64,000 nt of DNA from Candidatus Oxydemutator sp. (lineage in GTDB: Bacteria > Pseudomonadota > Gammaproteobacteria > Poriferisulfidales > Oxydemutatoraceae), in NCBI GenBank assembly GCA_965203445.1, contig OZ241883.1, forward strand, positions 800,001-864,000. Reading direction: 5' to 3'. The position numbers and the translations under genes were made by a program. Position 1 is the stretch's first letter. Each line of letters starts with the position of its first letter. The notes beneath the pieces are model-generated. The model did no database searches, was not told the origin of the DNA, and was given only the letters and a program-made list of their open reading frames with translations. Below, one piece after another: positions 24,797-37,439 of this stretch.

Positions 24797-25300
24797 TTAC
24801 TTGCGCGCGCCGCGACGCTCCTCGAAACGCCCGGCGTCGCGGTTCTTGACGACGCGGTCGCCGTCGAACACGGTGCCGTTCATTGCGACGTATACGCCCG
24901 GCGCCAGCAGTTGCACCGCGGCCAGCGCAAAACCGGCGTTGAACGCGGCGTCACTGTCTCGAAAGCGCGCCGGGGTCGCGGCCCCGGTCAGCACCACGGT
25001 CTTGCCGGCGACGGCGTCGCCGGCGAGCAGCGCGCGCGCGGTGTCGGCCATCGTGTCGGTGCCGTGGGTTACGACGAAGCGCCGGTTCGGGTCGCCGGCT
25101 ATGCGCTCGCGCAACAGGCGGCGGTCGTCGTCGGTCACGTCGAGACTGTCCTTGCCGATGAGCGCCTCGACGCGGTAATCGAAGACGACGTGCGCACCCT
25201 CTAGCAGCGCGCCGATCTGCGGCTCGCCGATACGGTAATCGCTGAGCGCGTCGTAGTAATTTTTGTCGAAAGTGCCGCCGGTGGCGAGTATGATGATCAT
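24797..25300 (-). CDS. Short asparaginase-domain protein
   Basis: ATGGTFDK.Y, KDSLD, VTHGTDTM, VVLTGA, DAAFN.G, VYVAMNG. ATG at 25300. Confidence 0.9.
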   Translation of the reverse strand: MIIILATGGTFDKNYYDALSDYRIGEPQIGALLEGAHVVFDYRVEALIGKDSLDVTDDDRRLLRERIAGDPNRRFVVTHGTDTMADTARALLAGDAVAGKTVVLTGAATPARFRDSDAAFNAGFALAAVQLLAPGVYVAMNGTVFDGDRVVKNRDAGRFEERRGARK

Positions 25301-25302
25301 AT

Positions 25303-26554
25303 GGGAATTATATGCAACGTTTGACAAAGCCAAACCTTGTATCCATTTGACGCTTCACGGGCCGAGTAACCTCGCCGCCTCCACGTCCAGCAGCCCTATT
25401 CCCGAGGGCCAGTACGTTCAACGCGGCATTCACATCCGCATTATCCCTATGCCCACAAACAGTACAGATAAATACTGCCTGGGTCTTTCTGTTTTCTTTA
25501 TCAACGCTCCCGCACTTGTTGCACGTCTGGCTTGTATATGCGGGATTGATGTAATTCGTATTCGTCTTGTAGTCCAGACACTGGTGGAACTTGCCCCAAC
25601 AAGACGCCAGGATTGCGCGGTTCAATCCGGCCTTTGCGCGGACATTCGTTGCGGGGTTATCCTTCGTTCCCTTGGCCCTTCTTGTCATCCCCCGATTGTT
25701 CAACTTCTCCAGATGGACAAGAGTGTATCCGTCGGCCACCCGCCTGGATACATCGTGGCACCAGTTTTGTCTGACGTGTCGCAACGTGGCTTGTGCTCTT
25801 CGGTGCAGCAACTGTGCGCGCATCCATCTGTTCGACGCCTTGATCCCCTTCTTGTGGTTCGGCCCCTGGCGCCTGGCCATCATTCTCTGATAATGCCTGA
25901 CGCGCCGCTCATGCCTTGTCGTATCCGGCATACAATACATCGTCCCGTCGGACAATGTTACTTGGCCGACGTTGCGGTCTATGCCGACTTCCCATACAGG
26001 CTTCCATGCTTCGACCTGCTCGACCTCGTATGTGATATACGCATACCACTTGCCGTATTCCCTCTTGACCGTACCGGACTTGGGCACACCGCCCGGGTAT
26101 GGGTTATGGCCAAGCAACAACACCTCGCCTATCCTCTGGATGTGCAAATAACAACCCGTCAGACGGAACGTTCCCGCCACCAACGGGAAACTATCGGGAC
26201 GGATATGCTTGGCATGGAAACGCGGCAGGCCGCCTTCCTCTTTGCAGAATTGTTTGTATGCGATTTCTATCGGTCTCAAAGAGTTCTTTACTATGTTCGC
26301 CGAATATTCCCGTAGCCATGTATCGTCATCCCTGCGCAACTCCGTGAAACGTTTACCAAGCGAATAAAATCGGTAATCGCACTCGCCATCTGTGGCATAC
26401 TCGTTACGCAACTTGCCCACAAAGTGATTCCACACGTACCGGCACGCGCCGGCCGTACCCGACAACTTGCGGGCCTTGGCTTGCGTCTGCGGATGCAAAC
26501 GGTATCTGATTGTCCGGTGTGCTTTCATCTTGTCAAACAAAGTATATAGTTCCC
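25303..26554 (-). mobile_element. Non-autonomous tnpB-only element with 25-bp terminal inverted repeats and a target-site duplication
   Basis: IRs GGGAATTATATGCAACGTTTGACAA (25303-25327) and GGGAACTATATACTTTGTTTGACAA (reverse complement of 26530-26554) are 20/25 identical. Flanking direct repeat: gatcatat / aatcatat (7/8), or a perfect 6-bp atcata if the ends are TG...CA. GC is lower than in the flanks. Confidence 0.85.
25308..26528 (-). CDS. tnpB: RNA-guided endonuclease TnpB (~406 aa), catalytic residues intact
   Basis: N-terminal YRLHP...G.CRYVWN; RuvC-I VGIDRN; RuvC-II HLEKLN; AKAGLNRAIL..CWG; Zn ribbon YTSQTCNKCG...FICTVCG; RuvC-III NADVNAALN. Confidence 0.95.
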   Translation of the reverse strand: MKAHRTIRYRLHPQTQAKARKLSGTAGACRYVWNHFVGKLRNEYATDGECDYRFYSLGKRFTELRRDDDTWLREYSANIVKNSLRPIEIAYKQFCKEEGGLPRFHAKHIRPDSFPLVAGTFRLTGCYLHIQRIGEVLLLGHNPYPGGVPKSGTVKREYGKWYAYITYEVEQVEAWKPVWEVGIDRNVGQVTLSDGTMYCMPDTTRHERRVRHYQRMMARRQGPNHKKGIKASNRWMRAQLLHRRAQATLRHVRQNWCHDVSRRVADGYTLVHLEKLNNRGMTRRAKGTKDNPATNVRAKAGLNRAILASCWGKFHQCLDYKTNTNYINPAYTSQTCNKCGSVDKENRKTQAVFICTVCGHRDNADVNAALNVLALGNRAAGRGGGEVTRPVKRQMDTRFGFVKRCI

Positions 26555-26556
26555 AA

Positions 26557-26862
26557 TCATATTTTCAGGCGCTCGACGATGTGGCCGCCGACGAGATGCC
26601 GCTCGACGATCTCGTCCACGTCTTCCTTCGATTCGTAGCGGTACCAGGTGGCGTCGGGGTAGAGTACCGCGACCGGCCCCTCGGCACAACGGTCGAGGCA
26701 GCCGGCGCGGTTGACGCGGAAAGCGCCCTGCCCCGAAAGGCCGAGCGCCTTGAGCTTGCGCTTGGCGTGGTCGCGCATCGCCTCGGCGTCGTGGTCGGCG
26801 CAACAGGCGCCGTCGTCGCGCTGATTCACGCAAAAGAACAAATGACGTTGGTAGAAAGACAT
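26557..26862 (-). CDS. Thioredoxin-like [2Fe-2S] ferredoxin
   Basis: HLFFCVNQR...CC...RVNRAGCLDRCAEGPVAVLYPDATWY...DVDEIV..HL..G..VERL. Confidence 0.93.
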   Translation of the reverse strand: MSFYQRHLFFCVNQRDDGACCADHDAEAMRDHAKRKLKALGLSGQGAFRVNRAGCLDRCAEGPVAVLYPDATWYRYESKEDVDEIVERHLVGGHIVERLKI

Positions 26863-28141
26863 GTGGAAAAGCCGTAGCCGGACGGACAATGATACAACAC
26901 GTCCGTATGGGAGGGCGCAGCAGGAGCTGCGCGAACGGCTGCGCGCGGGCGCCGACCGCTGCGTGATGTGCGGCCTGTGCCTGCCGCATTGTCCGACCTA
27001 CGGCGCGACGCGCAACGAGGCCGATTCGCCGCGCGGGCGGGTCGCGCTGATCGCGGCCCTCGCACGCGACCAACTGCGCACCGACGCGGCGCTTGCGACG
27101 CACCTCGACCAGTGCCTGCATTGCCTGCGCTGCCAGCGGGCGTGCCCGGCGAACGTCGCCTACGCCGGGCTGATAGACGGCGCCAAGGAACTGCTGCACG
27201 GCAAGGAAGCGCTGGCGGGGCCGCCGTTGTGGTTGCGTTGGGTGGTGGATTACGCGGCGGTGCGGCGGACGTTGGCCTTGGCGACAAGGGTCTGGCAGCG
27301 AAGCGGATTACAGGCGATGACGCGGCGGAGCAAATGGTGGCGGAAGACGAAAATCGGGCGGCTGGAGGCGATGCTGCCGCGCGCGCCCGCGCGAACACGC
27401 ACACCGTGGTCAACGCAAGAGCAAGCGCCTCGCGACCGCGAGGCGCGAAGTGCCGATGCCGACCTGTTCACCGGGTGCGTCGCCGAGATCGGCGATCAGG
27501 AAACGTTGAAAGCGGCGCGGCTGCTGCTGCACGCGGCCGGGTTCACGGTGCGGGTGCCGAAGGGGCAGGGGTGTTGCGGCGCGCTCGATCAGCATTCGGG
27601 AAATCCGCATAACGCGCGGCGCTGCATCGAGCGCAACCGCGCGGCGTTCGCCGGAACGGCGCCGATTATTTCGTGCGCGACCGGCTGCGGCGCACAATGG
27701 CGGCAACACGGCGGCGAGACGGCGGCGCGGCATTGCGACGTTCTCGACTTTCTGGCGGAGCACGGGTCGGCGCTCGCGTTCAGGCCACTGCCGGGAAAAG
27801 CGGCGTTACACGTCCCGTGTACGCAGCGCGATGCCGGCGGGTCGGCGGCGGCGCAACGCTTGCTGGCGCGTGTTCCGGCCCTGGCGCTGACCGATCTTCC
27901 CGACCGCAGCGGCTGTTGCGGCGCGGCCGGCCTGCACCTGTTGCGCCAGCCTGAGATGGGCGCGCGCCTGATTGCGGATAAAATAGACGCACTCGAGGCG
28001 ATGAACGTGAAGACACTGCTTACCACCAACGTCGGGTGCGCGATGCACTTTCGGCGCGCGCTGTCCGAGCGCGGGCTCGACGTCGCCGTGCTGCATCCGG
28101 TTTCGCTGCTGTGCCGGCAGCTTGCGGGAAGGACGCCGTGA
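26861..28141 (+). CDS. GlcF-like Fe-S oxidoreductase (two 4Fe-4S motifs + two CCG domains); start uncertain
   Basis: CVMCGLCLPHCPTY, SPRGR, CLHCLRCQRACP, CCGAL, CCGAAG, NVGC. Confidence 0.85.
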   Translation: MWKSRSRTDNDTTRPYGRAQQELRERLRAGADRCVMCGLCLPHCPTYGATRNEADSPRGRVALIAALARDQLRTDAALATHLDQCLHCLRCQRACPANVAYAGLIDGAKELLHGKEALAGPPLWLRWVVDYAAVRRTLALATRVWQRSGLQAMTRRSKWWRKTKIGRLEAMLPRAPARTRTPWSTQEQAPRDREARSADADLFTGCVAEIGDQETLKAARLLLHAAGFTVRVPKGQGCCGALDQHSGNPHNARRCIERNRAAFAGTAPIISCATGCGAQWRQHGGETAARHCDVLDFLAEHGSALAFRPLPGKAALHVPCTQRDAGGSAAAQRLLARVPALALTDLPDRSGCCGAAGLHLLRQPEMGARLIADKIDALEAMNVKTLLTTNVGCAMHFRRALSERGLDVAVLHPVSLLCRQLAGRTP

Positions 28142-28876: not shown

Positions 28877-28952
28877 GCCGGTGTAGCTCAGCTGGTAGAG
28901 CAGCTGTTTCGTAAACAGCAGGTCGGAGGTTCGAGTCCTCTCGCCGGCACCA
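28877..28952 (+). tRNA. tRNA-Thr(CGT)
   Basis: Cloverleaf: GCCGGTG/CGCCGGC acceptor, anticodon arm gctgt-ttCGTaa-acagc, GGTTCGAGT T-loop, encoded CCA. TATAAT at 28862. Confidence 0.96.
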
Positions 28953-28983: not shown

Positions 28984-29056
28984 GCGCCCGTAGCTCAGTG
29001 GATAGAGCGCTGCCCTCCGGAGGCAGAAGTCGCAGGTTCGAATCCTGCCGGGCGCG
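28984..29056 (+). tRNA. tRNA-Arg(CCG), CCA not encoded
   Basis: GCGCCCG/CGGGCGC acceptor, ctgcc-ctCCGga-ggcag anticodon arm, GGTTCGAATCC. Confidence 0.95.
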
Positions 29057-29076
29057 CTTCCCGCGCTTCCCTTGCG

Positions 29077-37315: not shown

Positions 37316-37439
37316 CCTTGCAATTATGGAATACAAGTCCCGAATTGCAAGTTTTCATTTTCTGCGGGGGCTTATATACAATGCCGCCCGCAATGGCGGA
37401 ACTTGCGACGCTGACTGGTGTCGTCACTGCGACCACGTA

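Follow-up and report, generated by a model that had tools for sequence, protein, structure and literature searches.

A TnpB-only unit with terminal repeats and 8-bp duplications, very probably of the IS1595 family, in a Candidatus Oxydemutator genome

TnpB, the ancestor of Cas12 and a compact genome-editing nuclease, normally resides in IS200/IS605 elements, with an HUH Y1 transposase, or in IS607 elements, with a serine recombinase, neither of which possesses terminal inverted repeats (IRs) or target-site duplications (TSDs). The IS1595 family of DDE-type insertion sequences (ISs) was reportedly described by Siguier et al. in 2009, with an ISNwi1 group and with derivatives that carry passenger genes. 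Here, we describe a unit that appears to bring the two together. It lies in a 64,000-nucleotide stretch of Candidatus Oxydemutator sp. DNA (assembly GCA_965203445.1, contig OZ241883.1, positions 800,001 to 864,000), hereafter called the window, whose numbering is used unless host-genome coordinates are indicated. The unit, at 25303-26554, is very probably a non-autonomous member of the IS1595 family whose sole gene encodes an intact TnpB RNA-guided nuclease, and which was moved in trans.

The closest described systems are DDE transposons that carry TnpB-family nucleases. Altae-Tran et al. 2023 PNAS (PMC10691335) present, in their main text, six DDE-associated TnpB branches (DDE-1 to DDE-6) bounded by inverted terminal repeats, and they interpret solo TnpBs that have these ends as mobilised in trans. 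That main text names IS630 as a DDE family and no other, and does not mention TSDs; the main text of a 2026 review (PMC13565253) names ISL2, IS630 and IS1031 and describes prokaryotic DDE associations as rare and unexplained. IS1595 is absent from the main texts of both papers, and the supplements of the former may include the clade. A literature search for IS1595 with TnpB, including TnpB as a passenger, returned, among the papers listed, nothing on the pairing by title or abstract. For eukaryotes, Fanzor proteins in DDE transposons have been reported by Bao and Jurka 2013 (PMC3627910).

The window locus resembles the branches of Altae-Tran et al., as presented in their main text, in that TnpB lies inside an IR-bounded transposon with its 3' end near the transposon end; the DDE family named there is IS630, whereas here the partner is IS1595 and 8-bp TSDs are documented (PMC10691335). 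With the IS1595 family, its lineage shares a transposase with an N-terminal zinc ribbon and a DDE_Tnp_IS1595 domain, terminal IRs, 8-bp AT-rich TSDs and the formation of derivatives with extra genes; unlike the described derivatives, TnpB is the passenger and TnpB-only units occur, neither of which was found in the literature search. IS1341-type solo TnpBs are similar in consisting of one gene in about 1.3 kb, in being multi-copy and in having a conserved, non-coding-like block over the 3' end of the open reading frame (ORF). They lack terminal IRs and TSDs, however, insert beside a constant motif of 4-5 nt and rely on a Y1 TnpA, whereas the locus described here has IRs and 8-bp TSDs and no Y1 transposase. 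Like Fanzor as outlined by Bao and Jurka (PMC3627910), it places a TnpB-family nuclease as a passenger within transposons with IRs and TSDs; unlike Fanzor, it is prokaryotic, has an IS1595 partner and encodes a compact TnpB of 406 amino acids. A preliminary description of this DNA had drawn the parallel to Fanzor capture, which is right but not new, as it has already been published for other DDE families (PMC10691335, main text). The principle is already known, and new at most are the IS1595 partner, the documented 8-bp TSDs, a hairpin embedded in the repeat and a bias in the flanking sequence.

The accepted role of TnpB, restoring scarlessly excised IS605 and IS607 elements, is not obviously applicable to DDE transposons. 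The lineage offers a natural system for the question of DDE-associated TnpB, with dozens of intact copies that have exact ends and duplications, and with TnpB-only, transposase-only, transposase-plus-methylase and transposase-plus-TnpB forms, all with ends of one kind. It also indicates that a mobile TnpB family can exist in genomes devoid of TnpA, a point of consequence for the annotation of TnpBs as 'IS200/IS605-family'.

The TnpB unit and its copies in the host genome

The unit spans 1252 bp and, read directly from the sequence, starts with GGGAATTATAT and ends with ATATAGTTCCC. Its left end, GGGAATTATATGCAACGTTTGACAA, and the reverse complement of its right end, GGGAACTATATACTTTGTTTGACAA, are identical at 20/25 positions, and a repeat search of the window returned IR arms at 25302-25327 and 26530-26555 (26 nt, 81%). 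The terminal IR at the tnpB 3' end occupies 25303-25328, with an outer 12 bp that is conserved family-wide, and the one at the 5' end occupies 26529-26554, where it adjoins the start codon (26-nt leader). Flanking 8-mers, GATCATAT at 25295-25302 (ATATGATC on the tnpB strand) and AATCATAT at 26555-26562 (ATATGATT on the tnpB strand), agree at 7/8 positions and form the TSD. The motif GGGAAYTATAT occurs twice in the 64-kb window, once at each end of the unit, and had no match in 100 dinucleotide shuffles. The sequence GGGAATTAT fits ggnnatTAT, which we take to be the ISNwi1-group end consensus; the consensus string itself was not found in the literature search. Both the sequence and the repeat search bear out the preliminary description, which had reported an intact tnpB in a 1252-bp unit with 20/25 IRs and a 7/8 direct repeat, and no transposase ORF was found in 25303-26554, as expected from its claim that the unit holds no tnpA. 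Its alternative delimitation, a 6-bp repeat with TG...CA ends, is disfavoured because the sister copies have GGG...CCC ends and an 8-bp duplication.

A single ORF on the minus strand, tnpB, takes up the unit (25308-26528; 406 amino acids from the ATG, or 410 from an alternative TTG start at 26540 in the ORF listing), and its TAA stop codon (25308-25310) falls within the 3' terminal IR. The protein has the domains Cas12f1-like_TNB (PF07282, 58.6 bits), HTH_OrfB_IS605 (PF12323) and OrfB_IS605 (PF01385), and matches the NCBIfam model guided_TnpB (NF040570) with 177 bits against a cut-off of 100. In an alignment to an ISDra2-type chain, the RuvC residues D (GIDRN), E (HLEKL) and D (DNADVNAALN) are kept, as is a CxxC...CxxC zinc finger (CNKCG...CTVCG), so that a RuvC D-E-D triad and a zinc finger stand together in a protein of TnpB length. 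Because these catalytic residues are intact, we take the protein to be a probable active nuclease.

The host genome is a single contig of 2.38 Mb, scored as 100% complete, with 64% GC. DNA of the window unit matches 21 places in it, and pairing of the end motifs genome-wide gave 17 candidate units that were measured with a simple IR and duplication finder, which misses ends with indels. Thirteen of these are full-length TnpB units, 1252-1377 bp in size, each with an intact ORF (406-434 amino acids); the other four comprise a deletion form of 786 bp, two short units (163 and 180 bp) resembling miniature inverted-repeat transposable elements (MITEs), and a 2616-bp transposase unit. The ends GGGAAYTATATA...TATATAATTCCC are common to all 13 TnpB units. 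Every unit starts with GGGAAYTAYRT, and the outer 12 bp are near-invariant, while IR positions 13-25 vary from unit to unit, in about seven sequence classes, and agree between the two ends of a unit. The flanking 8-bp repeats are perfect in eight of the 13 units, 7/8 in two (the window unit included), 6/8 in two and 4/8 in one, and the eight perfect duplications are all different and AT-rich. Further tnpB copies that share the ends but not the TSDs, which the preliminary description had proposed to look for, are therefore present in number.

The GC content of the TnpB units (44-55%) lies below that of the genome. Leaders at the 5' end measure 14-99 nt, and in 8/13 units the stop codon lies 5 nt from the element end, the ORF entering the 3' repeat. 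All 14 hits to the TNB domain in the host genome lie within TnpB-family units, and the copies sit at unrelated sites with no fixed neighbour gene. Most pairs of units are 60-84% identical, but two pairs, 99.9% and 97.3% identical, are found at different sites with their own duplications, and the family has therefore moved recently. The window copy itself is probably old, and it may now be stranded and not movable by the resident enzyme, since its TSD agrees at 7/8 and its IRs at 20/25, its closest relative in the host genome is 81% identical at the nucleotide level, and its inner repeat is unlike that of the resident transposase unit.

The units at host-genome positions 970249-971503 and 975120-976431 are oppositely oriented and separated by 3.6 kb, the former being the only full-length unit without a duplication, which may point to rearrangement between copies. 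The unit at 1431141-1432433 has an additional, internal copy of the end motif about 25 nt inward from its 5' terminus and a 6/8 duplication, as if an end had been duplicated or a second end inserted.

The IS1595 transposase and related units in other genomes

The host genome encodes one full IS1595 DDE domain (PF12762, 149-151 bits), in addition to a transposase fragment at 512999-513430. The full domain belongs to a 2616-bp unit at host-genome positions 1978350-1980965, which starts with GGGAATTATATA, has IRs identical at 26/26 positions and is flanked by the TSD ATCAGAAA (8/8). Its transposase of 314 amino acids combines Zn_ribbon_IS1595 with DDE_Tnp_IS1595 and matches NF033547 with 206 bits (cut-off 75). 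An autonomous IS1595 element with matching IRs, the second item that the preliminary description had suggested seeking, thus exists in the same genome, and the outer 12 bp of the window unit are the same in kind as its ends. Searches of the complete host genome gave no hit for Y1 transposases (PF01797) and none for serine recombinases (PF00239), where control searches matched 6/14 and 12/14 reference genomes, respectively. With neither a Y1 nor a serine TnpA present, the IS1595 enzyme is the sole in-genome candidate with matching ends. The resident IS1595 unit also carries a passenger of its own, a 436-amino-acid fusion of an N6/N4 DNA methylase with an HNH nuclease domain (PF01555, 171 bits; PF01844, 46 bits); the IS1595 lineage does, therefore, take passengers.

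As a probable member of the IS1595 family, the window unit shares its outer ends with a transposase-encoding element and has the 8-bp TSD of that family (7/8 in the window; 8/8 in 8/13 sister units and in the transposase unit). It has no DDE transposase with a zinc ribbon of its own, and because no transposase ORF lies inside, it is filed as a non-autonomous derivative and not as an IS. Membership of the IS1341 group of IS200/IS605 is contradicted by the IRs and by 8-bp duplications of varied sequence, and neither the Y1 TnpA of IS200/IS605 nor the serine TnpA of IS607 occurs in the host genome.

An alignment of 11 of the 13 host TnpBs was used as the query for other genomes and gave 76 loci in public genome records, mostly gammaproteobacterial metagenome-assembled genomes (MAGs) and one Opitutales MAG, with full-length matches at 46-60% identity; here, as in the counts that follow, related genomes are not independent. 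Matching ends (GGGA..TAT, IR of at least 18/26) are present in 27/58 full-length loci, 11 of which have perfect TSDs and 5 have TSDs of 7/8. The simple finder gave no motif pair at 13 loci, and three loci (L144, L168 and L175) combine indels in the repeat with perfect duplications. TnpBs only 32-35% identical to that of the window (L253, L255 and L257) have ends of the GGGACTTATATAC type and the same 3' layout, in L257 with a perfect duplication; the association is therefore ancient and extends across the clade. A second TnpB group of about 470 amino acids (L254, L256 and L258; 32% identical to the window protein) has different short IRs, GTGTGGAAT...ATTCCACAC, with flanks like RAAGT, and possibly rides another non-IS605 chassis.

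In 4/76 loci, an IS1595 transposase is encoded no more than 4 kb from tnpB (tblastn with two IS1595 transposases as queries). In one of them, L145 (2724-5238), a 296-amino-acid IS1595 transposase and a divergent 414-amino-acid TnpB lie within one pair of ends, which match at 17 of the first 19 positions. Arenicellales units have the transposase-tnpB spacer and tnpB in common with L145, but not the transposase, and in two relatives the nearby transposase is a separate unit or a fragment. The clade thus includes both a joint transposase-TnpB unit and solo TnpBs with the same ends, as is characteristic of DDE-associated TnpBs. Among 40 relatives, the TnpB clade (E<=1e-60) is found in 15 and an IS1595 domain in 25; an IS1595 hit accompanies the clade in 15/15 relatives and occurs in 10/25 without it, where the relatives are not independent and some hits are fragments. 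TnpB-less IS1595 units account for 15 of 40 transposase loci from relatives; these measure 1246-1410 bp, have IRs of at least 24/26 with the same outer ends, and all 15 have perfect 8-bp TSDs. One of them, L270, carries the inner motif TTGTTTGACAAG, as at the 5' end of the window copy.

From what is established for DDE transposition, we infer that the unit would have entered at an ATGA stop/start overlap of two genes, by the staggered 8-bp cleavage that DDE transposases perform, and that it would have been mobilised in trans by an IS1595 transposase recognising the shared GGGAATTATATA ends; movement in trans would be required because the unit is without its own transposase. The enzyme could be the one encoded in the host genome, with cognates that have the window copy's inner motif in relatives. 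The capture of an RNA-guided nuclease by a DDE chassis, as proposed in the preliminary description, is supported by the shared ends, the TSDs and the IS1595 unit, and its mobilisation in trans is a reasonable deduction from these. None of the contrary outcomes named there beforehand was seen, namely copies with other boundaries and no TSDs, homologues in IS605 or IS607 elements, or an empty site with both repeats.

The 3' end, the flanking purine and rival explanations

A conserved block at the 3' end of the unit (25303-25410, minus strand) reads GGCC..CGGGAAT..GGACGTGGAGG...CGGCCYGTGAAGCGTCAAATGG and is followed by a hairpin and the element end. The block overlaps the end of the tnpB ORF and is conserved at the nucleotide level in 42 aligned units, which encode proteins of 50-80% identity. 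Compared with the sequence further upstream, the final ~110 nt of the ORF are far more strongly conserved as DNA, and this conservation stops at ..GTGAAGCGTCAAATGG, after which 20-40 variable nucleotides precede the conserved TATATAATTCCC. The hairpin (25315-25339, minus strand; -10.2 kcal/mol, z -1.76) uses the inner half of the IR as its 3' arm and leaves 12 nt single-stranded (14 to the element end), compared with 9 nt in a typical sister copy. It is present in 41/41 distinct 3' ends, with a mean of 12.2 bp and with IR positions ~10-25 as the 3' arm. The stem sequences are wholly different between classes and yet pairing is retained; in the window copy, 10/11 pairs form between the arm and the diverged 3' repeat, even where the two terminal repeats disagree. 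G.U pairs outnumber A.C 1x1 mismatches by 71 to 11 in minimum-energy folds, which favour G.U. Shuffle z-scores for 14 ends range from -0.2 to -3.9, so that a single copy says little and the argument depends on the conservation of the register. A compact hairpin is lacking at 5/6 folded ends of TnpB-less units, and Rfam at E<=1 gave no match in window positions 25100-26800. Together, the block and the hairpin are a candidate ω-RNA scaffold, and the embedding of the hairpin in the repeat seems to be unreported.

A repeat-derived hairpin (-14.1 kcal/mol) was also observed inside the left end of a TnpB-less IS1595 unit in the relative G015 (L212:3795-5076). It consists of a second copy of the inverted repeat, upstream of the transposase gene, and repeat-derived hairpins may therefore predate the association with TnpB.

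The flanks were compared at 46 non-redundant insertion sites with 7/8 or 8/8 duplications, the duplications being 78% A+T. Immediately outside the duplication, upstream of tnpB, G stands at 29 sites, A at 14, T at 3 and C at none (purine in 43/46), and the next base outward is C in 1/46. At the mirror position downstream, a pyrimidine on the tnpB strand occurs in 19/46, with no such bias (Fisher p 9e-8). In 15 clean TnpB-less units, the two mirror positions hold a purine in 6/15 and 5/15, and the pooled comparison of 43/46 TnpB sites with 11/30 TnpB-less ends gives p 1e-7, where 8/15 control units represent one IS in one genome. A symmetric preference of the transposase would not give a one-sided bias, and a 9-bp duplication or shifted ends were ruled out on the sequences. 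A promoter made by the flank is an unlikely source, for host-genome units with long leaders (76-99 nt) are biased like those with short ones; some long leaders hold, by eye, an internal promoter-like pair, TTGATT..TATGAT. The purine occupies the position where a target-adjacent motif (TAM) would sit if the guide begins right beyond ..AATTCCC, and we hypothesise that it is the last base of the TAM. The bias, which is specific to TnpB sites and testable as a TAM, seems not to have been reported.

By analogy with IS605-type TnpB, an ω-RNA would consist of the conserved ORF 3' block and the hairpin from the inner half of the 3' IR, and its guide would be read over the last repeat bases ..AUAAUUCCC into the duplication and flank. 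The TnpB complex would then cut copies of the site that are free of the element, and recombination would restore the element, which would promote its retention or spread; the TAM would end with the purine that precedes the duplication on the tnpB 5' side. We tentatively extend this to a reading, possible though in our view doubtful, in which TnpB has been built into the IS1595 end: the inner half of the 3' IR would serve as one arm of the guide-proximal ω-RNA hairpin, transposase recognition and RNA structure would co-evolve, and the purine would be the footprint of TAM homing. Were it true, natural data would show an RNA-guided nuclease filtering where a DDE transposon persists.

Several findings weigh against these readings. 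For the IS1595 assignment and movement in trans, only one of the about seven inner-repeat classes matches the single resident transposase unit, and the inner half of the window copy's IR differs from that unit. The host unit at 970249-971503 has no duplication (4/8), 11/27 loci with good IRs elsewhere have a duplication of at most 5/8, and a transposase and TnpB share a unit in only 1/76 loci (L145), with a TSD of 4/8. An empty site was looked for among relatives and in three sequencing runs and none was found, so that insertion is deduced from the duplication and the sister copies. As to the RNA and its guide, transcription could end short of the flank, at the hairpin and the AU-rich stretch behind it, the putative TAM is just a purine with 'not C' before it and is weaker than the known 4-5-nt TAMs, and the control for the purine is small (15 units, 8 from one IS).

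In an unlikely alternative, it is the hairpin's 5' arm that acts as the guide, and TnpB is aimed at its own or related transposon ends, or at excised forms, rather than at the flank. The arm is a near-copy of IR positions 10-25, the variable stretch starts exactly where conservation of the scaffold stops and co-varies with both repeats, and it is preceded by ..AAATGG in the RNA gene and by ..AATTAT in the repeats, which would separate self from target; the 71 G.U pairs against 11 A.C mismatches are expected for RNA pairing of either kind. Cuts just inside both ends would destroy the element, however, and the window arm fits the 3' repeat (10/11 pairs) much better than the 5' repeat, which fits a structural hairpin. 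Repeats of 24-26 bp are also found in TnpB-less IS1595 units, so their length need not reflect a guide, and the purine bias of the flank would be left unexplained.

It is hardly likely, too, that the units are relics in which nothing moves, TnpB being kept for a host or regulatory role (exaptation of the TldR type) or decaying. The imperfect IR and TSD of the window copy, its lack of a close twin (best 81% at the nucleotide level) and the single transposase gene in the host genome would fit such a state, but the ORFs are intact with catalytic residues in 13/13 units, the 99.9% and 97.3% identical pairs have their own duplications at different sites, and no neighbour gene is fixed. Very improbable, and largely refuted by the anatomy, is an accidental nesting in which an IS1341-type (IS200/IS605) solo TnpB landed in a short IS1595-derived MITE: MITE-like units (163 and 180 bp) bounded by the family's ends do occur in the host genome and IS1341-type TnpB-only elements are common (PMC10691335, main text), yet there is no space for IS605-type ends, as the 5' repeat adjoins the start codon and the ORF enters the 3' repeat, this fused layout is kept in TnpBs 32-35% identical (L253, L255, L257) and in 42 aligned 3' ends, the host genome has no Y1 transposase, and L145 holds an IS1595 transposase and TnpB in one unit.

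The insertion site and its neighbourhood

Under the reading of the unit as a non-autonomous IS1595 derivative, its insertion separated two genes on the minus strand. On one side lies a short asparaginase-family gene (24797-25300, 167 amino acids; PF00710, 83 bits), cut off from its upstream gene by the insertion, and on the other a thioredoxin-like [2Fe-2S] ferredoxin-like gene (26557-26889, 110 amino acids; PF01257, 22.6 bits, below the cut-off of 24.8). The TSD copy at 25295-25302 contains the ATG of the former and the copy at 26555-26562 the TGA stop of the latter. On the gene strand, the flanks read ..CTGAAAATATGATT before the unit and ATATGATCATCATA... after it. Removal in silico of the unit together with one 8-mer gives ..AAAATATGATCATC..., in which the ferredoxin-like TGA overlaps the asparaginase-like ATG (ATGA). 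The duplication kept both flanking reading frames whole, and the single TSD mismatch lies past the stop codon.

Among 40 relatives searched, the ferredoxin-like protein was not found in the 18 of the same family; it occurs in 14 genomes of the same order at 48-63% identity, with an adjoining asparaginase gene in 0/14. The asparaginase-like protein was searched in public genome contigs (80 loci kept) and in five relatives. Its closest homologues (62-79% amino acid identity) start with MKII.. and have another upstream gene or other upstream DNA, and therefore do not represent the pre-insertion junction. Contigs of two of the three sequencing runs bridge the two ends of the occupied site, with no contig joined across the element; the third run covers interior pieces alone. 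The ferredoxin/asparaginase pairing with the presumed ATGA overlap seems to be particular to the host genome.

In a sequencing run from a different sample and organism, contig pieces identical to the interior of the window copy (25444-25663, 26091-26241 and 26295-26429) occur without flanks, and this element copy may be present in another host or at another site. Elsewhere in the window, at 37367-37390, the sequence GGGGCTTATATACAATGCC.. matches the end motif with two mismatches and has no nearby partner; it is possibly a solo end or a chance match. On the plus strand, the window also encodes tRNA-Thr(CGT) at 28877-28952 and tRNA-Arg(CCG) at 28984-29057, both of which are covered by long spurious ORFs.

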